Source of the DNA: Terriglobia bacterium
GTDB taxonomy: Bacteria; Acidobacteriota; Terriglobia; 20CM-2-55-15
Direction of reading: 5' to 3'
Length of the DNA stretch: 64,000 nt
Assembly (NCBI GenBank): GCA_965198225.1
Contig: CBDAOY010000004.1
Span: forward strand, 256,001-320,000
The notes under the pieces were generated by a model that was not told the DNA's origin, ran no database searches, and saw only the letters and a list, made by a program, of their open reading frames with translations. Shown in pieces: positions 13,478-60,684 of this stretch. The translations under genes were made by a program, and so were the position numbers. Every line of letters begins with the position of its first letter. Positions within the stretch are counted from its first letter, which is position 1.

Positions 13478-14168
13478 GTTCCTGCGGGCACAGTTTGAGG
13501 GAGGGTTTGCGTTGTCGCCCCTTACTGTCGCCGTTCGGCTCGTCGCGGCGATGGTCCTGGGCGGTGTCGTTGTGTTCGTCTACAGACGCACCCGGGCGGC
13601 CGAAGATGTCGTTCCGTCGTTTACGACGACGTTGCTGCTTCTTGCGATTCTTATCGCGATGGTGACGCAGGTGATCGGCGACAACGTGGCCCGTGCGTTC
13701 AGTCTCGTCGGCGCCCTGTCCATCGTCCGGTTTCGTACGGTTGTTCGAGACACGCAGGATACCGCTTACGTCATTTTCGCCGTCGTCGTCGGTATGGCCG
13801 CGGGCGCCGGCGATCCGTGGGTGGCCGGGATCGGAATCTTCATCGTATCGTTTGCCGCCTACCTGGCGCGCAGCTCGCAGGGAGCTCCTGTGATACAGGC
13901 GATCGAGGGCGGGGAGACATGCACACTCAAGCTGAAGGTTGGGCTCGGACACGATGTGAACCGAGGGGTCGTTCCCGTCATCGACGAGCATCTCTCCGGG
14001 CGACGCCTCAAATCGATGGGAACGTCGGCGGAAGGCTCGGCCATCGATGTCGCTTACGAGGTGGACCTTCCGGCGGACGATTCCGCCGAGGCGTTGATCA
14101 AAGCACTGAACCAGCTGGACGGCGTACAGAACGTGCAAATACAGCGTCGCAAACCAAAGGGGAATTGA
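13470..14168 (+). CDS. DUF4956 / MgtC-like membrane protein with ACT-like C-terminus
   Basis: VIGDNVARAFSLVGALSIVRFRTVVRDTQD signature; overlaps the VTC stop. Confidence 0.85.
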   Translation: MPEFLRAQFEGGFALSPLTVAVRLVAAMVLGGVVVFVYRRTRAAEDVVPSFTTTLLLLAILIAMVTQVIGDNVARAFSLVGALSIVRFRTVVRDTQDTAYVIFAVVVGMAAGAGDPWVAGIGIFIVSFAAYLARSSQGAPVIQAIEGGETCTLKLKVGLGHDVNRGVVPVIDEHLSGRRLKSMGTSAEGSAIDVAYEVDLPADDSAEALIKALNQLDGVQNVQIQRRKPKGN

Positions 14169-14181
14169 GGAGGGCAAGACT

Positions 14182-15702
14182 ATGAAAGCACTCGCCGGCT
14201 TCATCGCGGCATCGACCGCCTGTTTCGCCGTGATTGCGATCACCCACGGATCTACCGCCGAGCTAACGCAGCGGGCCGGTCGAGGCCGAGGAGGCGGCGA
14301 TCCCACTGCCGGTCTGGTCGAGTTGGAGATCGTCGACCGGTTCGACACGGATGGCGATGGCATGCTGAATACCGAAGAACGCGTTCCAGCCCGTGAGTTC
14401 ATGGCGAGTCAACCCGCCCGGCGCGGCCCCCGGGGGGATCGCCCGCCGGCGCCCGAACCCGGCGCCATGCTGTCACCGGAAGATGTGACGATCTATGACA
14501 ACGAGCCGCTCTACGACATGTCGGTGCTGCGCACCCTGTTCTTCGAATTCGAGAGCGAGGAGTGGGAGGATGAACTCGGCGTGTTCCGGTTCTCGGACGT
14601 CGAGATACCCGCCACCCTGAGGGTCGACGGCGGGGTCTACAACGATGTCGGCGTCTCGTTCCGGGGCGCGTCGTCGTACTTCACGGTGTGGCCGGGACTC
14701 AAGCGTTCACTGAACGTGTCGCTCGATCTGGTGCTTGGTGATCAGCGGCTCGCCGGCCACCGCACGCTGAACCTGCTCAACTCGCACGCAGACCCGACGT
14801 TTCTGCGTTCCGTGCTCTGCTTCGAAGTATCGCGCGACTACCTGCCGGCTCCGAGGGCCAACTTCGTACGGGTGGTCATCAACGGCGAAAGCTGGGGCGT
14901 GTACGTGAACTCCGAACAGTTCAACAGCGATTTCGTGCGCGATTCCTTCCAGACCAGAGGCGGCGCCCGCTGGAAAGTGAAGGGCAATCCTCGTGGCGGA
15001 CGTGGCCTCGAATACTTCGGCCCCGACGTCGCCGCTTACAAGCGTGTGTACGATATCAAGACGAAGGACGATCCGGATTCCTGGACCGACCTCATCGAGC
15101 TGACTCGTGTGTTGAACGAGACGCCGCCGGAGGGGCTTGAAGCCGCCCTCGATCCTATACTCGACATTGACGGGGTCCTGAAGTTTCTCGCCCTGGACGT
15201 CGTGCTCCTCAACGGCGATGGATACTGGACCCGGGCGAGCGATTACAACATCTATCAGGATCCGGACGGGCGGTTCCACCTGGTTCCTCACGACGCCAAC
15301 GAGACATTCCGTGTCCCCGGGGTCGGGGGGCGTGGTGGGGCAGGCGGCCGGGGCCCCCGCGGAGGGTTTCGCGGCCGCGGTGGGAGAGGGGGTCGCGTCG
15401 GCCCACGGGCGACCATCGATCTCGATCCTCTCGTCGGCCTCGACGACGCGGGCAAGCCGCTACGCTCGAAACTGTTGGCTGTACCGGCCCTGCGGGAACG
15501 GTATTTGGGTTACGTGCGTGACATCGCGACGAAGTGGCTCGACTGGGAGAAGCTGGAACCGATCATCGAGCGCTACCGCGCAATCATCGCTGCCGACGTG
15601 GAGGCCGACACCCGCAAGCTTTATAGCCTCGAAGATTTCCAGCGGGGTGCTGAAGCCTTCAAGAGCTTCGCCGAACAGCGGCGGGCCTTCCTTCTCAAGT
15701 AG
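14182..15702 (+). CDS. CotH-family kinase, secreted, with EF-hand and RGG linkers
   Basis: VGVSFRGASS, KRSLNV, VVINGESWGVY and PHDANETF motifs; EF-hand DTDGDGMLNTEE; signal peptide. Confidence 0.88.
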   Translation: MKALAGFIAASTACFAVIAITHGSTAELTQRAGRGRGGGDPTAGLVELEIVDRFDTDGDGMLNTEERVPAREFMASQPARRGPRGDRPPAPEPGAMLSPEDVTIYDNEPLYDMSVLRTLFFEFESEEWEDELGVFRFSDVEIPATLRVDGGVYNDVGVSFRGASSYFTVWPGLKRSLNVSLDLVLGDQRLAGHRTLNLLNSHADPTFLRSVLCFEVSRDYLPAPRANFVRVVINGESWGVYVNSEQFNSDFVRDSFQTRGGARWKVKGNPRGGRGLEYFGPDVAAYKRVYDIKTKDDPDSWTDLIELTRVLNETPPEGLEAALDPILDIDGVLKFLALDVVLLNGDGYWTRASDYNIYQDPDGRFHLVPHDANETFRVPGVGGRGGAGGRGPRGGFRGRGGRGGRVGPRATIDLDPLVGLDDAGKPLRSKLLAVPALRERYLGYVRDIATKWLDWEKLEPIIERYRAIIAADVEADTRKLYSLEDFQRGAEAFKSFAEQRRAFLLK

Positions 15703-30588: not shown

Positions 30589-31344
30589 ATGACGTCTATG
30601 CTGACGCACCGACCTTACAGTCTCATCGCTCTCTGGTTTACGCTGCTCGCTGCGTGCGCGCCGGAACCGGCCGTGCTACCGGAATTCGCCGAACCCGAGC
30701 TTGTCGACGCGGAAGCGATCTTCCGTGAGATGGAATCGACTCTGGTTTCCGCGGACACGGTGCATTTCCAGTGTTCCATCACTTCCGAAGGAGTGGTGTC
30801 GAGCGATCTCGCCGGCAGCCTGTGGCTCGCGTCCGGGAACCGGACGCGCATCGACGTTGCGGGGACGTTTGCCGCCGAAGCGGTCGAGCTGACCTTGCTC
30901 TCGGACGGGACGCGGTTGGCCGGCGGTTCCGGGGCAGCAACCTTCGACATCGAGACTCCCGTCGGATTGCGTGAGGCGATTCTCATCGGCGCGACGCGGA
31001 TGGGCCTGTTGCACAACCTGGCCATGCTGACCGGAGGCGCACCGCCTGATCGGGCGGACGGATCGGTGCGGGAATGGGTTCAGGCGTCGGGTTTCACGAC
31101 CGGAGAGGTTGAGGTGATCGACGGAGCGGCGGCGCGGCCGATCCGGTTTGAACTTACCGTCGCCGGGCAGCCCTCCGGGGTGGCCGAGTTGTGGGTCGAC
31201 ACGGACTCGGGTCTCCCGGTGAGGCGCAACCAGACGGTGCATTTCGATGGGGGCGACATGCGGGTCGTCGAGATATATTCCCTGGTCGAGCTGGACGGAA
31301 ATCCATCGCCGGACGCGTTCATCAGAGCGGTCCGGGACGAATAA
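30589..31344 (+). CDS. Hypothetical lipoprotein, possibly LolA-like beta fold
   Basis: LAAC lipobox; ELWVDTDSGLPVR motif. Confidence 0.6.
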   Translation: MTSMLTHRPYSLIALWFTLLAACAPEPAVLPEFAEPELVDAEAIFREMESTLVSADTVHFQCSITSEGVVSSDLAGSLWLASGNRTRIDVAGTFAAEAVELTLLSDGTRLAGGSGAATFDIETPVGLREAILIGATRMGLLHNLAMLTGGAPPDRADGSVREWVQASGFTTGEVEVIDGAAARPIRFELTVAGQPSGVAELWVDTDSGLPVRRNQTVHFDGGDMRVVEIYSLVELDGNPSPDAFIRAVRDE

Positions 31345-31436
31345 TCCCGCTTCGTCGGCCCTGCTTCGGACTTCTTCGCGCATTGACGTTTTCCACCCGA
31401 TCCCGGAAGATGGGACCGCGTTTCCGGAGGCCAGAA

Positions 31437-32813
31437 ATGAGAAAGAGAATTCTACGTTTGGGCGTCGTCCCGGCCGTTTTGCTCGGGCTGATCGCGCCGC
31501 CGTCAGTCCTGTCGCAGAGTGGAAGCCGGTCCGAACTCCTGGCCCGAATCGACGATAGCGTCGAGGCCACGATGGAGCGAGATCACGTCATCGGGATGTC
31601 GATTGGCGTCAAGAAGAACGGTGAGGTCATCGTCGCAAAGGGTTACGGTTATGCGGATCTGGAGAACGATGTCCGCGCGACTGAGCACACGGTCTACCGG
31701 ATTGGCTCGATCACCAAACAGTTCACCGCGGCTTCCATCATGAAACTGGTCGAGGCCGGCATGTTGAGTCTGGATGACGAACTGACGGCATTCTTGCCGG
31801 ATTATTCGACCGCCGGCCACAACATAACGATCGACCGGCTCCTGAACCATACCTCGGGCATCAAGGGCTACACGGAAATGGAGGCCTTCGGCGAGGTAAT
31901 GCGGGAGGACCTCTCGCAGGAGGAACTCATCGCGTTGTTTTCCGCGGAACCCTTCGAGTTTGCTCCCGGCGAGAAGTACCAGTACAACAACTCCGCCTAC
32001 TATCTGCTGGGTGTGATCATCGAGAAGGTTACGGGACAGACCTACGAGGAGTATCTGCACGAAAACATCTGGGAGCCGCTCGGGATGCTGGAGTCTCACT
32101 ACCTCGACAACTCCCCCATCGTCCGGAATCGGGCCGAGGGATACGAGTTTCGGCGGGGACGCGTCGTCAACGACGATCCCCTGAGCATGCGCCTGCCCTA
32201 TTCGGCCGGCTCCCTGGGATCGAGCGTGTCGGACCTGTTCACCTGGCAGGCAGCGCTCCAGGGCAACAGGGTCATCAGCGAAGGCAGCTATGAGCGCATG
32301 ATCACGCCCGGGACTCTCAACGGCGGCAAGAAGTTGACCTACGGGTACGGGTTGGGGATTGGTGCGATGGAAGGACACCGAAAGATATCCCATGGAGGCG
32401 GCATCAACGGTTTCCGGACCCACCTTTCCTACTATCCGGATGACGACCTGACGGTCGTCGTCTTGACCAACACCGGCTCCGCCAGTCCGGCCGTGCTCGA
32501 GAGCGAGATCGCCCGAGCTGTCCTTGGCATCGCCAGGATCGATATCCCGGAGATCGACCTGACGATCGCTCAACTGGAGATGTATGCGGGCACGTACGAC
32601 CCTGGGCGCTCGCCGATCCGGGTATCGGTTCGCGACGGTCACCTGATGATGATGGGGGTAGCGCTTCGCCCGATCGGCGACCATCGATTCGTTTCGTCGA
32701 TCGATCCGTATCGCCGGGCCACCTTCACCATGGAGGGCGATCGCGCCGGCCGGGTTCGGATCGAGCGGGAAGGGCAGGTTACCGAAGCCCCACGGGTCCC
32801 CCCTGGCCCGTAA
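31437..32813 (+). CDS. Serine hydrolase (beta-lactamase class C / PBP-like)
   Basis: SITK (SxxK), LLNHTSG, YNN and HGG motifs; signal peptide. Confidence 0.92.
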   Translation: MRKRILRLGVVPAVLLGLIAPPSVLSQSGSRSELLARIDDSVEATMERDHVIGMSIGVKKNGEVIVAKGYGYADLENDVRATEHTVYRIGSITKQFTAASIMKLVEAGMLSLDDELTAFLPDYSTAGHNITIDRLLNHTSGIKGYTEMEAFGEVMREDLSQEELIALFSAEPFEFAPGEKYQYNNSAYYLLGVIIEKVTGQTYEEYLHENIWEPLGMLESHYLDNSPIVRNRAEGYEFRRGRVVNDDPLSMRLPYSAGSLGSSVSDLFTWQAALQGNRVISEGSYERMITPGTLNGGKKLTYGYGLGIGAMEGHRKISHGGGINGFRTHLSYYPDDDLTVVVLTNTGSASPAVLESEIARAVLGIARIDIPEIDLTIAQLEMYAGTYDPGRSPIRVSVRDGHLMMMGVALRPIGDHRFVSSIDPYRRATFTMEGDRAGRVRIEREGQVTEAPRVPPGP

Positions 32814-33481: not shown

Positions 33482-34525
33482 CTAGTGATTACGCGAAGAC
33501 CGTTCCAGTTCGTCGTCGATGATCGTAGCGTAGGTTTCGAACGGTTGGGCTCCCGACACGATACGCCCGTTGATGAACACGGCCGGCGTTCCGGTGACTC
33601 CCGCGATGACGCCGTCCCGGATGTCGCTCCGGACTCGATCCGCATTCTTGCCTGAATCCAGGCAGGCATTGAAGGCCTCGGTGTTCAAGCCCAGGCCCTC
33701 GGCCTTGGCTTTCAGACTGGCCACTTCGAGCTCGACAGGTTCTTGAAAGAGCAGGTCGTGCAGCGTCCAGAACTGACCCTGCTCATGAGCGCACAGCGAA
33801 GCTTCGGCTGCCTTCTGTGCCCGGGAGTGGATGTTGTTCAGTGGGAACTGTCGGAACACGATCTGAATCTGATCCCCGTAGTGTTCCTTGATCTGTTCCA
33901 GCGCGGGAAGGGCTCTGCGGCAGAATGGACACTCGAAGTCCGAAAACTCGACGATCTTCACGGGTGCATCACCGAGACCCAACGCCGGATGATCGGCCAC
34001 CTCCAGCTCGACGCGATAGGGTTCGAGCAACGACTCCACTCCGTACGACTCCTTGAGGCGTTCGACGAACTCGCCGAGCGCTGTCTGGTAGCTCTGCTCG
34101 TTGAGGAAGTTCCGAACCTGCTGCAAGCCGTCTTCCTGGGAGAGGTTCGCCAGCCTGCTTCTGTTCGCGTTGTACACGTTCTGGACCTCGGCTTCGGTCG
34201 GCGCTTCTTTGTTGGCCGTTACTTCGGTGGCGAGCATCTCGTCCATCGAGATGCCCCGCTCCGCTGTCTCGGCCTTCAGGAGCCGGTCCGCGATCGCTTC
34301 GTTGAGAGCATTCTCGATGATTCCGTGCTCCTCTCTTCGGGTGTTGGCCGCGGCCTGTAGACGCTGTGTTTCCAGTGCCCCGAGCTCAGCCGCGGCCACT
34401 GCCCTCATATCCGCTTCAGTCAAGGTCTCGCCGTTGACGATGGCCAGAGGCCTCGACGATTGGGCCCGGGCGGCCGGAATCAGGATCAACGCCAGGGCAC
34501 ATACGCCCACGATGCGTGTGCACAT
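33482..34525 (-). CDS. DsbA/thioredoxin protein with SurA-like N-terminus
   Basis: FSDFECPFC, GVTGTP cis-Pro loop; signal peptide; GGAGG RBS. Confidence 0.9.
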   Translation of the reverse strand: MCTRIVGVCALALILIPAARAQSSRPLAIVNGETLTEADMRAVAAAELGALETQRLQAAANTRREEHGIIENALNEAIADRLLKAETAERGISMDEMLATEVTANKEAPTEAEVQNVYNANRSRLANLSQEDGLQQVRNFLNEQSYQTALGEFVERLKESYGVESLLEPYRVELEVADHPALGLGDAPVKIVEFSDFECPFCRRALPALEQIKEHYGDQIQIVFRQFPLNNIHSRAQKAAEASLCAHEQGQFWTLHDLLFQEPVELEVASLKAKAEGLGLNTEAFNACLDSGKNADRVRSDIRDGVIAGVTGTPAVFINGRIVSGAQPFETYATIIDDELERSSRNH

Positions 34526-34601
34526 AGGTTCCTCCGTTAACCAGTTGAAGCTAAATGCTACCAACTCTGAAGGGATTGGGACAGGTAAAGAAAGTGGCCG
34601 A

Positions 34602-34711: not shown

Positions 34712-36301
34712 TCAGTTTTCCGCCGTGGCCATCACCCGCGCCAGATCCCGGTACGGGCCGACACCGCCGTGACCGCCCACGACCTGATTCACGTCCAGGC
34801 CGGCCGCCGTGACGCCCCTGTAGAAAGCCAGCGCGTTCGCGTTGTCCGCAGTCACAGGTCCACCCGGTGAGTAAAGGTCACTTACGAAGGCGGTCCCTGC
34901 GTCGGCCACAAACGCGATGAGCATTCCTGTGGCGTGCTCGTTCTCGACATGATGGAACTGGACGGTTCGTGTTCCGTCGGTCAGCTCCATCGGTTCGCCA
35001 ACTCCCTCCACGGTTGGGCTGGCACCCGACGCTTGTTGGAGAGAGTCCGGCCTCTGCGTGTGTTCGGCGCCAAGAACAGTCTCCAGGAACGGCACGATAC
35101 TCTCGTGACCGACGATAGTTGCGCCCTTTGCGGCGTATGCCCGGACTCCTCCGCTGTGGTCCATGTGGAAGTGGGTCAGCACGGCGTAGCGGATCGGCTT
35201 GTCGGGAAAACTTTCCTCCAGAGCTTCGATAACCGCCGCCGATCTTTCCTCATACAGCGGCGTTCCCACGACGATCAGATGGTCTTCCATCTCGACCACC
35301 ATGCTGTGATGGCTGCTTCCGGTGGCATGGAGGATTCCCGGGGCGACTTCCCCGAGCACGACGTTCTGCGGCTGGGCAAACCCCTGGTATCCGACCCCGA
35401 GTGTCGCCCGGCGCAGAGTCCACTGCGAAACCTGGCGCTCACCAACCTCCGGTGTGTCGCGAACTTCCTGAGGGATATCGAAGGTCCCCTCGTCGAACGT
35501 CCCGTTGTTGATCAGGTTGCGGAACTCTTCCAGCCTGAATCGTTCGCCGTTCAGGAACAACGCTTGCGCATGAGGCAGCCTGACGTTGATCGGTGTTCCG
35601 TCGGCGGCCGCGTCGACCTGGGCTTCACGCCACTGGTCGTAAACCAGCGTGTTCAGCGTGTCGCCGTAAAGCGGATCGTCTTCAGTGTAGGTAACCTGTA
35701 TCGGGAGCTTCGTGAAGTTGTCGATCTGGAGTTCGACCGGCTGGCCGCCGTCCCGATACTGCAGAAACTCGATGGTCGTCCCGTCGACCGTTTGATCCTC
35801 CACTCGCGTTAGTTCCGCTGAGTCTCTTGCAACGAAGAGCAGCCGTGTTGCCAGGCGGTTGAAATCTCTCATCCGCGTCGCAAACCGGCTCGGATGCATC
35901 CGGGTGTACACGGGTTCGCCTTCCTCGTCGGTCCCCCGGAGAGCGCCGACGTTGCCGTCGATCACCTCAGTGAACTGAACAGCCTGATTGTTCGGATAGA
36001 TTCGTTCGCCATCAAAGTTGAGGTACATACTCGAGTTCGTGAAGTCGACCATCAGTGTCCGGCCCCAACCATTGACCTGGCGTTCGGCCCCGGGCTCTAC
36101 TGCCTGCATCGGCTCCCAGTCATTGCCCTGCGAGACGATTTCCTGTCGTTCGATCGCGGAGAGCACGTCCCAGCCGCCCATGGATTGCGCAACCTCGTCG
36201 AGCAGCGCACGTGCCGCTTCCGGGCCGGTTGTGGGCTCCGAGCCGCAGGCGGAAATGGAAAGGACCGTCAGCGTGAGAACGATAATCCAGCGGGTTCTCA
36301 T
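34712..36301 (-). CDS. MBL-fold metallo-hydrolase lipoprotein
   Basis: THFHMDH motif, later H, SD and GHG; ISAC lipobox. Confidence 0.85.
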   Translation of the reverse strand: MRTRWIIVLTLTVLSISACGSEPTTGPEAARALLDEVAQSMGGWDVLSAIERQEIVSQGNDWEPMQAVEPGAERQVNGWGRTLMVDFTNSSMYLNFDGERIYPNNQAVQFTEVIDGNVGALRGTDEEGEPVYTRMHPSRFATRMRDFNRLATRLLFVARDSAELTRVEDQTVDGTTIEFLQYRDGGQPVELQIDNFTKLPIQVTYTEDDPLYGDTLNTLVYDQWREAQVDAAADGTPINVRLPHAQALFLNGERFRLEEFRNLINNGTFDEGTFDIPQEVRDTPEVGERQVSQWTLRRATLGVGYQGFAQPQNVVLGEVAPGILHATGSSHHSMVVEMEDHLIVVGTPLYEERSAAVIEALEESFPDKPIRYAVLTHFHMDHSGGVRAYAAKGATIVGHESIVPFLETVLGAEHTQRPDSLQQASGASPTVEGVGEPMELTDGTRTVQFHHVENEHATGMLIAFVADAGTAFVSDLYSPGGPVTADNANALAFYRGVTAAGLDVNQVVGGHGGVGPYRDLARVMATAEN

Positions 36302-36404
36302 CAGTTTCACCCCCATTGCAATGTTTGAATCAGTGAAGGGTACGTCAAGCGGGCTCAAAGATCAATTGAATGAGAGGGTTTGGTGGAGGGTTCGACGCCT
36401 TGGG

Positions 36405-37184
36405 TCAGACGCCGCGGGGCAATTTTTCGGCGGGGACCCATATGGAGCGCCCGGTCAGTTCACGATGGTCCAGACCCGCAGCCTTGTCCATCAGCCGAAG
36501 AGATTCCGGCTGCGGCACCTCGAAACGCCAGTCATCGGACCGCCCACCCACGTCTTCGAGAGCCGACGTCCACTCGCCCCACCACGGCGTCAACCGTCGG
36601 GCAATCGGTTCGACGATCAGGGCCGATGCCCCACGGCGGGCAGACCGTCTGAGCCTCTCGAGCAGTTTGCCGCGCGACGAAGCGGTAAGCTCATTTACCG
36701 TAAAAGCCGCCAGAATGCCGGCACCCTTGCCGGGCAGATCGAAGCCTGCCAGGTCGGCCCGGTGTACCTTCCCCCGCAGTCCGAGTGTCTGAAGAGCCCA
36801 TCGCGCCTCGTCCGCGGCCCACGAGTTCCGCTCGACACCGACGATTTCAGGTCGCGTTCCGGAAGACAGCGCCCAGGCGGCCCCTGCCGCACCGGTTCCG
36901 CAACCGAGATCGACGACCCGAGTCAGCTCGCAGCCGTCAGCCCCGAGCGCGAGCACGATTTCACGGACAAGAAGGAAGTGGAGTGGTGCGTAAAAAAGGG
37001 CGAACGCGGCCCGCTTTCCGGCGCTCTCCAGAGCCCGCCCGGCTCTAGAGAGCCGGCGCTCGACATACCCGACCGATAGCGCCTGAACGGCCCGCCGGAC
37101 CTCCTGGAAGGTGAGATCGGCGAGGTGCCGATCTTCCAGAGCCGAGAACCAGGTTCGGAACGCGTCTGTCTCGTCTGAGGTCAT
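36405..37184 (-). CDS. SAM-dependent methyltransferase (Rsm22-like)
   Basis: AFALFYAPLH, VDLGCGTGA and LIVEP motifs. Confidence 0.75.
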   Translation of the reverse strand: MTSDETDAFRTWFSALEDRHLADLTFQEVRRAVQALSVGYVERRLSRAGRALESAGKRAAFALFYAPLHFLLVREIVLALGADGCELTRVVDLGCGTGAAGAAWALSSGTRPEIVGVERNSWAADEARWALQTLGLRGKVHRADLAGFDLPGKGAGILAAFTVNELTASSRGKLLERLRRSARRGASALIVEPIARRLTPWWGEWTSALEDVGGRSDDWRFEVPQPESLRLMDKAAGLDHRELTGRSIWVPAEKLPRGV

Positions 37185-37270
37185 TAGCGATGAATACTTC
37201 GCAGGCGTCGCAAAGGCTGACACCAAAGGTAATGTACACGCCCGTACGTCGTTTCCCCCCCTTTCTTCGC

Positions 37271-38086
37271 TCAGTCTCCGTCGGCGTCGTTCGACCAGTC
37301 CGGGAAAACATCCGGCTCCAGATCCAATCCACTGGCGAACTTTGTCAGGCCCGCAAAACGTTGGACCACACACAGTGTTTCCCAGACCTCTTCCTCGTCG
37401 ATCTCTAGCCTCCTGGCTTCGTTCCCGAAGAAGTCGGTACCGTAGTCCGATCCCGCGGCAGCGGATACAGCCAGCGCAATCAGTGTCTTCCGTTCCCGCG
37501 TCAAGAGGTCCGCCTCCAGGACCTGACGAACCCAGGACCAGGTCACCCGCAGGTAGAGCCCTCTTCGCGCGAGGGCGCGGAAGACGCCCGGAGCCTGCTG
37601 CATGCCGAAGAACTCGGCGATTTCGCCCAGCGGTCCGGCGTCGCCGGAATCAACAGGGATCGAAACCAGCGGACGGCGCCGGGAGCCTTCGTCGAACTCC
37701 AGCGGAAGCCGCAGGCCGTCGGCAAGCCGAATCAGTCCGTGGACGGCCATGACCACATAGATGGCTTCGACCCAGATTTCCGGATTCTTTGCCTGTTTGT
37801 TCTGCTGCATCCCGGCAGCAGTGTGTGAGACTACTCAGTAGTCGCATGTGTAGATGGTCGATGTCGCCACGGCCAGCATCTCCTTGAACCAGCCGGGGAG
37901 CACGCCGCTTGTTCCCATCAGCGCGCCCATGCCTTTGGAGTGTTCGATCGCCAGGTCGAGCTTGTAGGCCATGGCGCGGCTGATCATCGGGACGCGATCC
38001 CAGCTCATCCGTTTCATGACGGCGTCGAAATAGGCTCGTTGTTCCGGAGAGTTGTCTTCGATCGGTGGTATCGGGATCGTGGGCAT
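37271..38086 (-). CDS. Selenoprotein: tandem AhpD/CMD-like protein, 271 aa, with CDYU motif
   Basis: ORFs 37835-38086 and 37271-37810 are in frame across one TGA (37835-37837), giving EMLAVATS..TCDY-U-VVSH; AAGGAG RBS; SECIS-like hairpin follows. Confidence 0.85.
37802..37821 (-). promoter_or_regulatory. Candidate bacterial SECIS hairpin
   Basis: CTGCTGC-CGGGAT-GCAGCAG stem-loop starting 13 nt after the UGA. Confidence 0.7.
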
Positions 38087-38248
38087 CGGGATTCTCCTTT
38101 TTCCTTGTGAAAGACCTGCCGCCCCGAAGCGCGGACGACAGCGAATTGAAACATGCCTGGCACGGCGCTGACAACGACCAGCAGCCGCGGGCTGCTACGC
38201 TAACGGCAGCCGAGTTCGCTCGTCTATTCCTGTTGCGAGAGTGATGTT

Positions 38249-39622
38249 ATGCCTGTTTTGTTCCTGACGCTGCTGCTCCAGAGCTTCTTCCCCATCTTTG
38301 ATGCACCCGGCGTGGAGTACGTCGGCCTCTCAGCTGTCAACGCATCGGACGAATCCGCCCAGGTTACGGTCACGCTCACCGGGAATAGCGGCTCTGTTGT
38401 GAGCGTCGCCGGAATGACACTGGCGGCCGGGAATCAGAGTGCACTCCTCCTCCGGGAGGTCCTGGACGTCGAAACCACCCCCGCGTCAGGATGGATTCAG
38501 CTGGATTCTTCGCAGCAGGGGACAGAGTTCTTCCTGGCGGCCGGCGGTGATGGACTGCTGGGCGGCGCGGCGCCGGCTAGGTCGCTGTCGACGATGATCC
38601 TGCTCCCGAACGTCCGGGTCGATACCGGGTTCAAGGAATTGGGCGCTACCGATACGCTGGTGGCCATCGTCCATCCGGGCTCTGCCTTTGCAACTACTGT
38701 TACGCTCGAGTTGATCGGGCTCGACGGCGCGGTCGCCGGCAGTGTGACCAGGGTTCTGCCGACCCGAGGCAGCCTGACTCTGCGAGTCTCGGAAGCCTTC
38801 CGCGACTTCATGCCTGACAATGGAGTCGGGGGCCGGACGTTCGAGGGTTATCTCCGACTGAGGTCGACACTGGGTATCTCGGCGTGGCAGCGCGTCGAGA
38901 CGCCTCTCGTGCACACGGTGCTCCGCGGACGCGGTCTCGAGGAGTTGGATTCTTCCGGTGTCGTGCTGGCTCCGTATTTCGTGTTCGGCGGGCTCTATAG
39001 GTCCACCTTGAATCTCATCAATCCCTCGGCCGAGTCCGTCAGCCTGGAACTCGTCGCCGAGAATGGCAACGGCGGCACGATCGGCGAGACCGTCCAGCGC
39101 ACCCTCGGACCTGGAGAGGTGCTCCGTTCCGATGTCGAGGCGCTCTTTCGCGTCGTCACGATCCAGACTTTTCCCGGCCCGACGATTACCGGTTATGTCC
39201 GCATCCGTGGGACCGGTGGCGGTTCGATCCAACTGATCGGAAGCCTCGACGTTGCCAGTACCGGGCAGGGGACGTTCTCGCAGTCCGGGATGTCCTACCC
39301 CATCGGTGATCGAAGGACCGAGATGTGGGTGATCCCCCTGGCACTCGGCGGGTCGGACTACTACTCCGGATATTCCATTGCCAACCCCAACGAACTGCTC
39401 GCGGTCCAGACGGATGTGACGATCGAAGTCCGCGACTCCAGTGGGGTGCTGATCGACACATCGTTGGTGTCGCTGTCTCCGCGCCGGCAACATGCAGCCG
39501 TGACGCCACGCGAGCTGGCATCGGGCTGGGTCCGCATCACCGCGAACATGCCGGTCGGGCTTGTCGCTGCAATCGGCACTGCCGACTCGAGCGTCCTCGA
39601 ACAGGTGCCGGCAGGCAACTGA
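38249..39622 (+). CDS. Hypothetical secreted protein with four repeated beta-rich modules
   Basis: Repeated pattern [SA]..N/HP....V.L......G...SG[WY]..I/L; hydrophobic N-terminus. Confidence 0.65.
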   Translation: MPVLFLTLLLQSFFPIFDAPGVEYVGLSAVNASDESAQVTVTLTGNSGSVVSVAGMTLAAGNQSALLLREVLDVETTPASGWIQLDSSQQGTEFFLAAGGDGLLGGAAPARSLSTMILLPNVRVDTGFKELGATDTLVAIVHPGSAFATTVTLELIGLDGAVAGSVTRVLPTRGSLTLRVSEAFRDFMPDNGVGGRTFEGYLRLRSTLGISAWQRVETPLVHTVLRGRGLEELDSSGVVLAPYFVFGGLYRSTLNLINPSAESVSLELVAENGNGGTIGETVQRTLGPGEVLRSDVEALFRVVTIQTFPGPTITGYVRIRGTGGGSIQLIGSLDVASTGQGTFSQSGMSYPIGDRRTEMWVIPLALGGSDYYSGYSIANPNELLAVQTDVTIEVRDSSGVLIDTSLVSLSPRRQHAAVTPRELASGWVRITANMPVGLVAAIGTADSSVLEQVPAGN

Positions 39623-41268: not shown

Positions 41269-44200
41269 ATGATTCCGCGCCTTGCCCTCTCCCTGGCGAT
41301 GATTCTCGCCGCTTCCATGCCTGTGCTGCCGCAGGACACCGACCCGGAGAACGACGAAAACAAGAGCGATGGCCTGACGATCGAGCCGACGCGCACGATC
41401 GCGTTCGAGACGACCGAGGGAACGTACATGAACCTCGACGTGTCGCCCGACGGGAATAAGATCGTTTTCGACTTGCTCGGGGACATCTACACGGTTCCGG
41501 TTTCGGGAGGCCAGGCAACCCGCCTGACGGCGGGCATGGCATACGACATCCAGCCGTCGTTCTCGCCGGACGGGAACCGGATCGCTTTCATCTCCGATGA
41601 GAGCGGCAGCGACAACATCTGGGTGATGGGGGCCGATGGGGCCGAACCCCGGGCGATCACCGAGGAGACGGATAAGCCGGTCGCCGCTCCCCGGTGGGCG
41701 CCGGACGGCGAGTACCTCGTCGCCCGGCGTGACGGCAAGCTCTGGCTCTACCACCGGGATGGCGGCATGGGATGGAGTTGACGAAGTCCGACGACGCCGA
41801 GGGTGCGTACGGGCCGGTCTTTTCTCCCGATGGTCGCTGGGTCTATTTTTCCACCCGTGCCGAGTCTGCGGACGCTGCCCGGGGGCCGACGGCGGCTCTG
41901 GCGCGTCTCACTTCCTGGCAGGTGAAGAGATTGGATCGGAAGACGGGCGACGTCGCGACCATCACGGCTTCGCCCAACGGCGCGTACCGCCCCGCCATTT
42001 CCGAAGATGGAAGCTGGATGGCTTACGGTGTCCGCCTGGACGCAAAGACCGGACTGCGCATTCGCAACCTCGACAGCGACGTCGAGGATTGGCTGGCATA
42101 TCCCATCGATCGGGACAACGCCGAGCGTCCGGGTGTGCTGGATCTGATGCCCGCTTACGATTTCACGCCGGATGGGAGCGCGCTGATCATTGCCACCGGC
42201 GGGACGTTCCATCGAATCGATCTGGAAACGAAGGCAGATACGCCGATCGCATTCACAGCCCGGGTCGAGCAGGAACTCGGACCGCTCGTCCTCTTTGAGA
42301 GTTCGCACACCAACGATCCCGTCAAGGTGCGCAACGTGCGCTACGGCAACCGGAACAGGCAGGGTGACCGCATGGTCTTTTCGGCGCTGAACAAGATCTG
42401 GTTGATGGATCTACCGAACGGCGCGCCGACACAACTTGCCGACCAGCCCTTCGGGCAGTTCCATCCCGTGATGTCGCCCGACGGTCGGTGGGTGGCTTAC
42501 GTTTCCTGGGACGACGTCGACGGAGGGCACGTCTGGAAATTATCCCTGGAAGGGCCCGAGGGTCCCCGGCGCCTCACCGAACACGCGGGCTACTACATGC
42601 ATCCGTCGTGGTCTCCGGATGGAGGTAAGATCGCCTTCCTCAAAGAGGAAGGTGCTGCCTTCAGGAACGTCTGGACGCGCAACACGGGCCAACTATTGTG
42701 GGTAGATGCCAACGGCGGTGCGGCGCACTATGTCGGTTCCGCCCCGACCGATAACCGCGTTTCGTTCACCAGCGAGGGGGACCGGTTGATTTACGTCGCC
42801 GAGGTTACGCCGGAGAACAGACGAGAGGAAAAACCGGCGAAGTCCGAGGTCGTTTCCCTGCGTCTGGATGGAACCGACAGGAGGGCTCTTGCCAGGATCG
42901 ACGCCGAGACCTACGAGGTCGTTCCGTCTCCCGACGGCTCGTGGGTCGCGTTTTCGGTCCGCGAGGACGTCTATCTGGCCGCGATGCCCTTCGCGGCCGA
43001 GGTTCCCACGATCGGAGAGACCAAAGGCCCCGGCCCCGTCAAGCGGATCACGCGCGAAGGGGGCTTCGATATCCGGTGGGAAGACCAGGGTCGGACGCTG
43101 ACCTGGTCGTTTGCCGACCGGTTCTACAGTGTCGACCGCGCGCAGGCGATGGGAGCCGAGGATGACGTCGAACCCGACCAGATCGCGGTCGACATCACCG
43201 TGCCCAGGCACTATCCGCGGGGAACCCTCGCACTGCGCGGAGCCGACGTCATCACGATGGCCGACGAGCGGACGATCGAGAACGCCACCGTCATCGTTCA
43301 AGACAACCGGATCGTCGAAGTCGGCCCCTCCGCGAGTGTCCGTGTTCCGGCTGGCGCCGATATAGTCGATGTGACCGGAAAGACGATAATGCCGGGTCTG
43401 ATCGACATGCACGCTCACCTGCGTCCCCCGCGGGACGTCTTCGTCGAAGCCAGTTGGTCCTACCTGGCGAACCTCGCCTACGGTGTGACGACGACGCGGG
43501 ATGTGTCCAGCAGCAACGATTCGTTCGCCTACGGTGAACTGGTCGAGGCCGGCCGAATAGTCGGGCCGCGGATTTACAGCACCGGGCGCGCTATGACGAC
43601 CGGCAACGCGAAGATCGAAGATCTCGACGACGCCAGGGCCATGGTGCGGCACTACAAGAAGCTCGGCACGAAGGTCATCAAGCAGTACATGCAGCCCCAC
43701 CGCCGACAGCGGCAATGGGTCGTGGCCGCAGCGATGGAAGAGGGCCTCAACGTCACCAATGAGGGTGGCGGCGACTTCCGCCTCGACATGACGATGGTCC
43801 TGGACGGCTACAGCGGCTTCGAGCACAGCCTGCCGCTGGCCAACATCTACGGTGACGCCGTCCGGCTCCTGGCGGAGTCGAAGACCTGGTACACACCGAC
43901 GCTAGTGGTCTCCTACGGCGGTCCGACGGCCGAGTGGTATTTCTACCAGACGACGAACGTGCACGATGACGTGAAGCTCGCCCGGTTCACGCCGCACGAC
44001 GTCATCGACCGGAGGACCCGTCGGGGCAACATGTCCGCGATCGACGAGTACCACTTCACGAGCGTTTCCGAAATTGCGGCCCGGGTTCTCCAGGCGGGAG
44101 GCAACGTTGCTCTCGGAGCACACGGAGAAGAGCAGGGCATCTGCGCTCACTGGGAGTTGTGCCCTCCAGGGGCCCTCCAGATGGGTGGTCTGAGCAACTA

Positions 44201-44492
44201 TGACGCGCTGCGAACGGCCACGAGCGTCGCGGCCGAAGGACTTGGCATGGCGGCCGACCTCGGCACCGTGGAAGCCGGCAAGCTCGCCGACCTGCTGATC
44301 CTGGACGAGAACCCGCTCGACGACATCCGGAGCAGCAACACAGCCCACATGGTGATGAGCAACGGGGAGCTCTTCGATGCCGATACGCTCGACATGATCT
44401 GGCCCGAGAGAGTCCCGGCGCCCCCGTTGAAGTTCCTGGACTACGGCCCCCCGACCGAAGCCACCTCGGATGGAAACCAGAACCCAAACTGA
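41269..44492 (+). CDS. Secreted amidohydrolase with N-terminal PD40/TolB-like propellers, split by a frameshift near 41771
   Basis: Repeated P.FSPDG units continue across ORFs 41269 and 41772; PGLIDMHAH; GTVEAGKLADL. Confidence 0.88.
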
Positions 44493-59554: not shown

Positions 59555-60684
59555 CTAGTGGCCTGTAACGTTGAAAGTGGGACCAGTAATGTCCCTGCGT
59601 TGAGTTAACGTTCGTGCATGACCTATACAGCTGTGCGAGTGACGCCGAAAGTCGAGCGGGAACTGCAAAGACGAGTGCGCTCCCGAGCGCTGCGGGCCGA
59701 TGATGTGCGACGGGCTCGTTTGATACTGATGCTTGCCGACGGTCAGTCGTTCTCGGTGATCCGTGAAGCGCTGGGCTGTAACCGCAGCTACATCACGCGA
59801 TGGAAGAACCGATTTCTCGAAGACGGATTGTCGGGGTTGTACTCGCGACATGCGGGCCGAGCAGTGGAAAAACGAACGCCGAAGATGGAGGCTCGAATAC
59901 TGGCGTGGACAAGCAAGCCGCCGCCGGATGGATCCACGCACTGGAGTAGCCGCAAGTTGGCCGCTCATCTGGGAACGACTCACATGATGGTCGCCCGGGT
60001 TTGGAAACGCGCCGGACTGCAACCCCACCGAATCGAGCGCTACATGGCTTCCAACGATCCGGACTTTGAGAAGAAAGCGGCCGATATCATCGGACTCTAC
60101 GTCAATCCGCCGCAGCATGCGGCCGTCTTTTGCGTCGATGAAAAGACGGCTATCCAAGCCTTGGACCGTTTGGTTCCGGTGCTTCCGCTTTCTCCGGGCC
60201 GTGCGGAACGTCACGGCTTCGAGTATTTCCGCCATGGGACGCTCTCGCTCTATGCGGCGCTGAATACGAAGACCGGGGAGGTTGTCGGCAAAACGGCCCC
60301 ACGCCACACCAGCGAAGAGTTCGTGGCTTTCCTGGCGGATCTGCTGGTTCACCAACCACCGAACAAGGAGATTCACGTTATCGCTGATAACCTTTCCGCT
60401 CACAAGACCAAGCGAGTCCGGCAATTCCTCACCGATCATCCCCACGTTCACATTCACTACACGCCGACCTACTCGTCCTGGTTGAACCAAGTCGAACTCT
60501 GGTTTGCGAAGATCGAGCGGGATGTCATCGTCCGCGGCATCTTCACTTCCGTTAAAGATCTGGCTCGCAAGCTCATGCGATACGTTCGTCATTACAACAA
60601 ACAACCTAAACCCATAAAGTGGACCTATCGGGACGCCTCCAAGCGAATTCTCCCGGACCCGATTTAACTGTTACAGGTCACTAG
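59555..60684 (+). mobile_element. IS630-family insertion sequence (coordinates include flanking CTAG)
   Basis: Imperfect TIRs TGGCCTGTAAC.. / ..GTTACAGGTCA, CTAG on both sides, intact transposase. Confidence 0.93.
59618..60667 (+). CDS. IS630 family transposase
   Basis: HTH region (THWSSRKLA), DDE triad VDEK / ADN / NQVE, TPTYSSWLN and KPIKW. Confidence 0.95.
   Translation: MTYTAVRVTPKVERELQRRVRSRALRADDVRRARLILMLADGQSFSVIREALGCNRSYITRWKNRFLEDGLSGLYSRHAGRAVEKRTPKMEARILAWTSKPPPDGSTHWSSRKLAAHLGTTHMMVARVWKRAGLQPHRIERYMASNDPDFEKKAADIIGLYVNPPQHAAVFCVDEKTAIQALDRLVPVLPLSPGRAERHGFEYFRHGTLSLYAALNTKTGEVVGKTAPRHTSEEFVAFLADLLVHQPPNKEIHVIADNLSAHKTKRVRQFLTDHPHVHIHYTPTYSSWLNQVELWFAKIERDVIVRGIFTSVKDLARKLMRYVRHYNKQPKPIKWTYRDASKRILPDPI

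Follow-up and report, generated by a model that had tools for sequence, protein, structure and literature searches.

Two adjacent open reading frames (ORFs) on the minus strand of a stretch of Terriglobia DNA (the window, that is, the whole 64,000 nucleotides analysed) very probably form a single gene, mis-annotated as two, and its identification as a tandem AhpD/CMD selenoprotein is well supported (Table 1). The frame running from 38086 to 37271 contains just one internal stop, a TGA at codon 84 in the translated context TCDY*VVSH, and a standard ORF caller reports it as two ORFs of 83 and 179 aa. The sequence-only reading of this DNA had joined both ORFs in frame through a TGA at the second Cys of the AhpD motif, and this is indeed how they lie. 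We regard selenocysteine (Sec) read-through at UGA84 as highly probable, and the two pieces present in databases are very probably one antioxidant-type selenocysteine enzyme.

Table 1. Features of the tandem AhpD/CMD gene, in positions of the window.
Feature	Position	Strand	Basis or detail
Complete CDS, 271 aa when TGA84 is selenocysteine	37271..38086	minus	terminal stop TGA at 37273-37271
Shine-Dalgarno-like AAGGAG	38094..38099	minus	7 nt upstream of ATG, from sequence
Repeat 1 (aa 1-130), AhpD core, live site	37697..38086	minus	single-domain profile 63 bits; 2OUW; TIGR00778
Proton-relay motif E69...C81-D-Y83-U84...H88	37823..37882	minus	PA0269 spacing; aligned to CSYC of 2OUW
In-frame UGA, predicted selenocysteine 84	37835..37837	minus	TGA in 4/4 DNA sequences; within predicted helix 82-95
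Predicted bacterial SECIS	37802..37821	minus	7-bp stem, 6-nt loop CGGGAU, G at loop position 2
Repeat 2 (aa 155-260), AhpD/CMD fold without redox site	37307..37624	minus	profile 70.9 bits; PF02627 on C-terminal ORF
Dead motif K200-T-L-I-A-L-A-V-S-A-A-A-G-S213-D-Y215-G216-T-D-F-F220	37427..37489	minus	from sequence

The same stop was found in other genomes. In a broad alignment of 28 sequences conservation was nowhere sufficient for scanning genomes, and patterns from the close clade were used instead. Scanning GTDB with these gave 110 pattern matches and finally three confirmed loci (L001-L003), located in one Solibacteraceae MAG and two complete Terriglobia chromosomes (OZ252023.1 and OZ253536.1), all of them Acidobacteriota. 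The three loci, which are related to each other, show long synteny with the window, which would by itself assign the window to Acidobacteriota, and encode orthologues of 267-268 aa that are 72-74% identical to the window's protein and are terminated by TAG. TGA is present at codon 84 in all three, as is the hairpin that follows it, and an AGGAGG precedes the start at a distance similar to that of the window's AAGGAG. Between the window and the orthologues, 62-63 of the 83 residues upstream of the stop are identical, as are 95-98 of the 133-134 in repeat 2. Four-fold sites are identical at 16-18 of 30-31 positions before the stop and at 17-23 of 51-54 in repeat 2. Since amino acid identity is high and four-fold-site identity much lower, both halves of the gene are under purifying selection. 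No convincing case of another in-frame TGA gene common to the window and the three loci was seen; the other TGAs that they have in common seem to fall outside genes or within shadow frames. A search for a sigma-70 promoter found none, and two terminator-like sites were seen, both at chance level.

These comparisons make it extremely improbable that the stop reflects a sequencing error, a pseudogene or a genome-wide reassignment of UGA. Errors do occur in such data, with a possible indel elsewhere in the window near 41770 and a frameshift in the near-identical record P0006, but the TGA is the same in three independent assemblies whose proteins differ from the window's to the extent given above. 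A pseudogene is contradicted by the purifying selection that persists downstream of the TGA. As for reassignment, 10 of the 15 window ORFs checked terminate with TGA, which shows that UGA is not reassigned genome-wide, and the 101 Trp codons of the same ORFs are TGG. Given that TGA is the commonest stop here, the fact that codon 84 is always TGA constitutes by itself little extra evidence.

The way in which relatives are recorded in protein databases points to the same codon. The full-length query gave 18 matches among 4638 candidates (58-100% identical, 153-187 aa), and all 18 of these close C-fragments start no earlier than residue 85, at varying points. The 83-aa query returned 12 candidates, all of 83-84 aa; one is the window's own, and each of the remaining 11 terminates in C-[DE]-Y. 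For four N-fragments the longest contig has the same length as that of a C-fragment, which suggests, short of proof, that both lie on one contig. Standard annotation thus leaves the gene as two fragments, as the sequence-only reading had anticipated, and its inference of selenocysteine read-through gains support from these boundaries at codon 84 together with the TGA in three of three other genomes. That reading would have counted homologues consistently ending at codon 84 as evidence against selenocysteine. Fragments do end there, but the C-halves begin just after this codon and stay under purifying selection, and the pattern is therefore a signature of recoding and not a refutation.

Column 84 could also be followed in more distant proteins. 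Long ones were hand-picked from 119 matches (50% library); of the 15 full-length tandem rows that span the column, 12 have Cys and the others Phe, Ser and Gly, so that the Cys/UGA pairing proposed for this column is observed in that selection. Closer relatives were delimited with a profile of repeat 2 derived from 20 of the 54 members it finally defined, which makes the assignment partly circular. Screening of 177 retrieved proteins yielded this clade of 54, of which 53 are pieces lacking column 84; no member has Cys there, and the only one that spans it, the degenerate-looking P0053, has Gly.

That all close database entries are fragments is also what one would see if UGA84 were a true conserved stop, the 83-aa piece assembling with a C-piece re-initiated at codon 85 or 93 to give a two-subunit protein with a single Cys. 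We consider this very unlikely. In its favour, TGA is the stop that most ORFs use here, and possible starts are available, with an ATG or GTG at codon 93 in each of the four genomes and a GTG at codon 85 in three. However, codon 85 is GTA in the window, and codon 93 lies within the hairpin and has no Shine-Dalgarno sequence upstream. The NTG at codon 93 can be attributed to its G, which closes the hairpin stem; in the wider clade residue 93 is Lys or Arg. Predicted starts are moreover scattered (85, 86, 89, 93, 97-99, 104, 113 and later). A true stop would also break the protein on the catalytic Cys column, inside a helix, and would part C81 from H88.

Selenocysteine insertion in bacteria is associated with an in-frame SECIS, and the sequence-only reading had pointed to a 7-bp hairpin with a G near the start of its loop, 13 nt past the TGA. 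The hairpin is present as described: the stem begins 13 nt and the loop 20 nt after the UGA. The SECIS model set out in the part of PMC13188914 covered here asks for a loop of 3-9 nt, a stem of 4-16 bp, a G in the first two loop positions and a spacing of 16-37 nt, and the hairpin complies with all four (loop 6, stem 7, G at 2, spacing 20). Its energy is -10.6 kcal/mol in the four sequences (the window and L001-L003), the limit in our SECIS test being -7.5 kcal/mol or lower. The hairpin alone is nevertheless weak evidence. Its folding z against chance is -1.03 for 60 nt, -1.77 for 100 nt and -2.45 when the stretch is cut down to the hairpin itself, and our own script, which is not bSECISearch, passes 85 of the 1773 TGA triplets of the window by SECIS rules, 31 of the 1773 being as strong or stronger. 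For L001, the hairpin is absent from the 60-nt minimum-energy fold and present in the local 30-nt fold.

Across the four sequences all seven stem pairs are invariant and the sole change falls in the loop; covariation therefore lends no support, no compensatory change being seen. Nowhere in the gene except at codons 89-95 do six synonymous codons in a row stay invariant (58 of 172 are invariant overall). The probability of such a run is about 7e-4 at this pre-named place and about 0.12 anywhere in the gene, both rough values that ignore the kinship of the three loci. It is the conjunction that goes far beyond chance, because the stop falls on the catalytic column, is kept in three of three genomes and is where 11 of 11 N-fragments end.

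The hairpin bears too on the possibility that an opal suppressor tRNA decodes UGA84 as cysteine or some other amino acid, which we hold to be very unlikely. Opal-reading cysteine tRNAs exist, and unusual tRNAs of Acidobacteria have been proposed to act as suppressors in the sections of PMC5389517 covered; P0082, a partial protein outside the 54, is recorded with Trp at column 84. Yet the selC* tRNAs of those sections belong to other phyla and to genomes that also have a full Sec system, a SECIS-type hairpin is what decoding by SelB predicts, and the Trp of P0082 could reflect gene calling under code 4.

When the UGA is decoded, the product contains two AhpD/CMD repeats. Residues 1-130 and 155-260 each match a profile made from 17 single-domain relatives. 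PF02627 is matched by the read-through protein with 49.4 bits (cut-off 23) in two stretches and TIGR00778 with 34.8 bits, above its cut-off of 27.8; the 83-aa fragment alone gives no Pfam match. BLASTP of repeat 1 against repeat 2 returned no alignment, and the repeat is visible by profile and structure only. With selenocysteine at codon 84, which is aligned to the second Cys of the 2OUW CSYC motif, the relay E69/C81/Y83/U84/H88 is intact; its counterpart in PA0269 is E36/C48/Y50/C51/H55 according to the text of PMC3141380 covered. The equivalent positions of repeat 2, at an offset of 132, are T201 for E69, S213 for C81, Y215, G216 for U84 and F220 for H88. Our comparison confirms that the C-terminal repeat is without both redox residues, S213 and G216 replacing C81 and U84, and the loss is larger than the sequence-only reading had said, since T201 and F220 are replaced too (four of the five relay residues). 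K200, S213, Y215 and G216 are invariant in the 19 sequences of alignment A5, and the S/T-x-[YF]-G form of the dead motif is present in nearly all clade members.

Structure prediction is consistent with this arrangement. The AlphaFold model of the read-through protein (43-row alignment) has a pLDDT of 95.1 and a pTM of 0.92, and places codon 84 within helix 82-95. The top nine structural matches in VIA-align comprise eight AhpD/CMD proteins and, in ninth place, Sestrin2 (Z 18.2-9.9), and Foldseek finds the same family. The best match is 2Q0T (Z 18.2, rmsd 2.9, 220 aligned); 2PFX has a Z of 17.4, and 3LVY and M. tuberculosis AhpD (1GU9) one of 16.0. Separately, 2OUW aligns on residues 1-136, that is, repeat 1 (Z 10.9, rmsd 2.6, 133 aligned), and TTHA0727 on residues 150-261, that is, repeat 2 (Z 7.0, rmsd 4.1, 108 aligned). 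The profile matches on both halves, the predicted fold and the single intact relay together favour the fused pseudo-dimer with one live site that had been suggested.

CxxU selenoproteins of the AhpD/CMD type are long known, and the live/dead tandem layout also occurs in Cys proteins. In the parts of the literature covered, CxxU AhpD-like (COG2128/TIGR01926) and CMD-like (PF02627) selenoproteins are first listed in 2005 from the Sargasso Sea (PMC1088965), are described as abundant in ocean samples (PMC2398784), are treated again in PMC9312934 and appear with NF041047, NF041238 and NF041537 in the table of a 2026 review (PMC13188914). Bacterial AhpD-type selenoproteins rest on prediction in these sources, and some are fused to methyltransferases. 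Our protein shares with them the AhpD/CMD fold, the CxxU motif with Sec in second place, the in-frame SECIS and the fact of being hidden by stop-codon annotation. It differs in that its 271 aa make up two full repeats, the second with a dead site, an arrangement absent from the descriptions covered. No description of a tandem AhpD selenoprotein was found in this literature, outside which most subscription papers lie. BSepDB uses broad AhpD-like and CMD-like labels, as far as PMC13326102 was covered, and may already file such genes under one of them.

The two-domain form lies under the cut-off of every curated selenoprotein model tested. TIGR01926, a model of about 178 positions, gave 47.9 against a cut-off of 81.8 and over residues 4-101 only (55.6 for L001, 48.3 for L002). 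Scores were far lower for NF041238 (CFYUT; 17 bits, cut-off 175), NF041537 (ArsM/AhpD; 18.8, cut-off 510) and NF045649 (MduS; 17, cut-off 380), and the read-through protein had no match at E ≤ 0.1 to NF041047 (GSU3128) or NF053654 (YciW-related). The AhpD-type core is common to the protein and the NCBIfam AhpD-type (seleno)protein models, as is the CxxU of NF041238, NF041047, NF041537 and MduS; unlike them, it has no methyltransferase domain in the chain and another length and Sec position.

All five relay positions of repeat 1 are shared with single-domain cores (2OUW from Rhodospirillum rubrum, PA0269 and the ~130-aa CxYC proteins P0149-P0156), from which the protein differs by its duplication in one chain, its Sec for Cys and its inactive second copy. 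The Cys tandems P0027, P0030, P0089, P0102, P0109 and P0118 also consist of two repeats, only the first of which has the CxYC motif, but they are only 22-36% identical to our protein and form separate groups in a quick domain tree (74 rows, 129 columns) in which 34 of 71 branches, the deeper ones among them, are open. In this tree a branch with support 94 sets off the 24 repeat-2 rows of the clade, and its 7 repeat-1 rows come together with support 97. The solved tandem 2Q0T resembles the 271-aa protein in fold. Sestrin2 is described, in the portion of PMC4674687 covered, as a pseudo-symmetric pair of AhpD-like domains, the first redox-active and the second conserved but dead. The live and dead pair is an analogy and not a sign of membership: in Sestrin a larger, 2PRR-type unit is duplicated, Sec is absent and the only Cys used stands at the first position of the motif. 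PA26/PF04636 (sestrins) scores 13.4 bits against a cut-off of 29.4, and the structural match covers Sestrin residues 66-220 only (Z 9.9).

Some further relatives deserve mention. P0113, an 82-aa fragment that ends at C-D-Y and is 35% identical, groups with the first repeats of the Sec clade and is probably the N-piece of a member of the wider clade. In the tandem proteins P0050, P0059 and P0100 (212-225 aa) the dead repeat comes first and the chain stops exactly at the C-x-Y of the second repeat, which suggests a mirror-image type of selenoprotein with Sec in repeat 2; P0050 and P0059 are well under the NF041238 cut-off. On plasmids there are 8 distant matches (24-35% identity), one of them among trxB, thioredoxin, OsmC and DsbA genes. 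This neighbourhood fits a redox role for the superfamily and is too distant for transfer to the 271-aa protein.

The 47 window ORF translations contain no match to selA, selB or selD (Pfam), and there is no tRNA or other Rfam RNA, Sec tRNA included, in the 64-kb window or in the 54 kb of L001-L003. Sec users among Acidobacteria are recorded in Table 2 of PMC1794560 and in Table 2 of PMC12013277. Directly downstream of the gene, on the same strand, lies a SAM methyltransferase (36405-37373, minus, with a likely start near 37229). An operon link to it was rejected: the methyltransferase is not ArsM-like, and a subtilase gene intervenes between it and the selenoprotein gene in L002 and L003. In L002 an insertion-sequence-like ORF pair (13687-15284) stands downstream of the methyltransferase and breaks synteny with the window. 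The divergently transcribed neighbour (38249-39622, plus) encodes a probably secreted protein of 457 aa with no Pfam match above cut-off (weak DUF5719); it is beside the gene in L002 and L003 and was not found in the L001 comparison.

Farther away, a SurA-like/DsbA thioredoxin protein (33482-34564, minus) carries CPFC, the Cys form, and is syntenic in L003; its best NCBIfam match is a (seleno)lipoprotein family, at 109.5 bits against a cut-off of 190. The window also encodes a metallo-beta-lactamase-fold protein far under all resistance-gene cut-offs (34712-36358, minus), a serine beta-lactamase-family protein (31191-32813, plus; PF00144, Pfam) and a transposase with HTH and DDE_3 domains (59618-60667, plus). 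Two overlapping ORFs with WD40-like PD40 repeats (41269-41781 and 41772-44492, plus), the second ending in an amidohydrolase domain, look like one gene with a frameshift near 41770, either an assembly indel or a pseudogene.

On the reading that we prefer, one gene would give a single selenoprotein of 271 aa belonging to the AhpD/CMD superfamily. SelB with Sec-tRNA would bind the in-frame hairpin and insert selenocysteine at UGA84, and the chain is predicted to fold into two AhpD cores of ~130 aa each that make up a pseudo-dimer, in which repeat 2 would complete the helical bundle that single-domain relatives form from two subunits. In repeat 1, the Glu69/His88/Tyr83 relay would support the Sec84 selenolate. 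By analogy with M. tuberculosis AhpD, where we take the attacking residue to be Cys133, at the position equivalent to Sec84, this selenolate may attack either a hydroperoxide or an oxidised peroxiredoxin at its disulfide; Cys81 would then resolve the product to a selenenyl-sulfide, which a cellular dithiol would re-reduce. A selenol peroxidase or peroxiredoxin reductase is thus the most likely activity on this analogy, and the combination of Sec read-through with peroxide or peroxiredoxin reduction as the function seems to us reasonably probable. No peroxiredoxin or reductase partner gene is present among the scanned neighbours (Pfam).

Bmp8, a CMD homologue that removes bromine (PMC7918430, in the part covered), raises the question of whether the same selenoprotein could act on a non-peroxide substrate. 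It would then be a reductive dehalogenase or small-molecule reductase like this AhpD-fold debrominase, with selenium attacking a halogen or soft electrophile, a possibility that we rate as unlikely. Bmp8 (6OHI) is third in the structural ranking (Z 16.2, rmsd 2.8, 177 aligned), and the family profile (alignment A7), compared with solved structures, matches group I haloacid dehalogenases over repeat 2 with an E of 4e-12, hinting at a distant homology of DehI repeats and the AhpD/CMD core. However, the whole-chain superposition on haloacid dehalogenases is poor (TM 0.23), and Bmp8 is tied with or under the peroxidase-type structures 2PFX, 3LVY and 1GU9 and is far weaker by sequence profile (E 0.005, against 4e-24 for 2OUW). 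There is no halogenase cluster among the scanned neighbours. Finally, Bmp8 uses the first Cys of the motif, whereas our protein would carry Sec at the second position. Equally unlikely is a broader proposal: that of a wide, apparently selenium-obligate clade whose dead S-x-Y-G repeat would be a substrate or partner site, as in sestrin, the enzyme being a dedicated selenium-dependent reductase, possibly a thyroid-deiodinase-like dehalogenase, and not a general peroxidase.

The identification of this gene as a tandem selenoprotein leaves the principles of recoding unchanged. It corrects an annotation gap, the clade being invisible as a full-length protein in databases: because 53 of its 54 members are pieces without the active site, there is no usable full-length entry for it. 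It also extends the catalogue of bacterial selenoproteins by one architecture and provides a marker of selenium utilisation in Acidobacteriota that have not been cultured. The protein, which combines one selenium site and an inbuilt dead copy in a single chain, offers a clean model for what selenium contributes to the AhpD mechanism and for why dead repeats persist.
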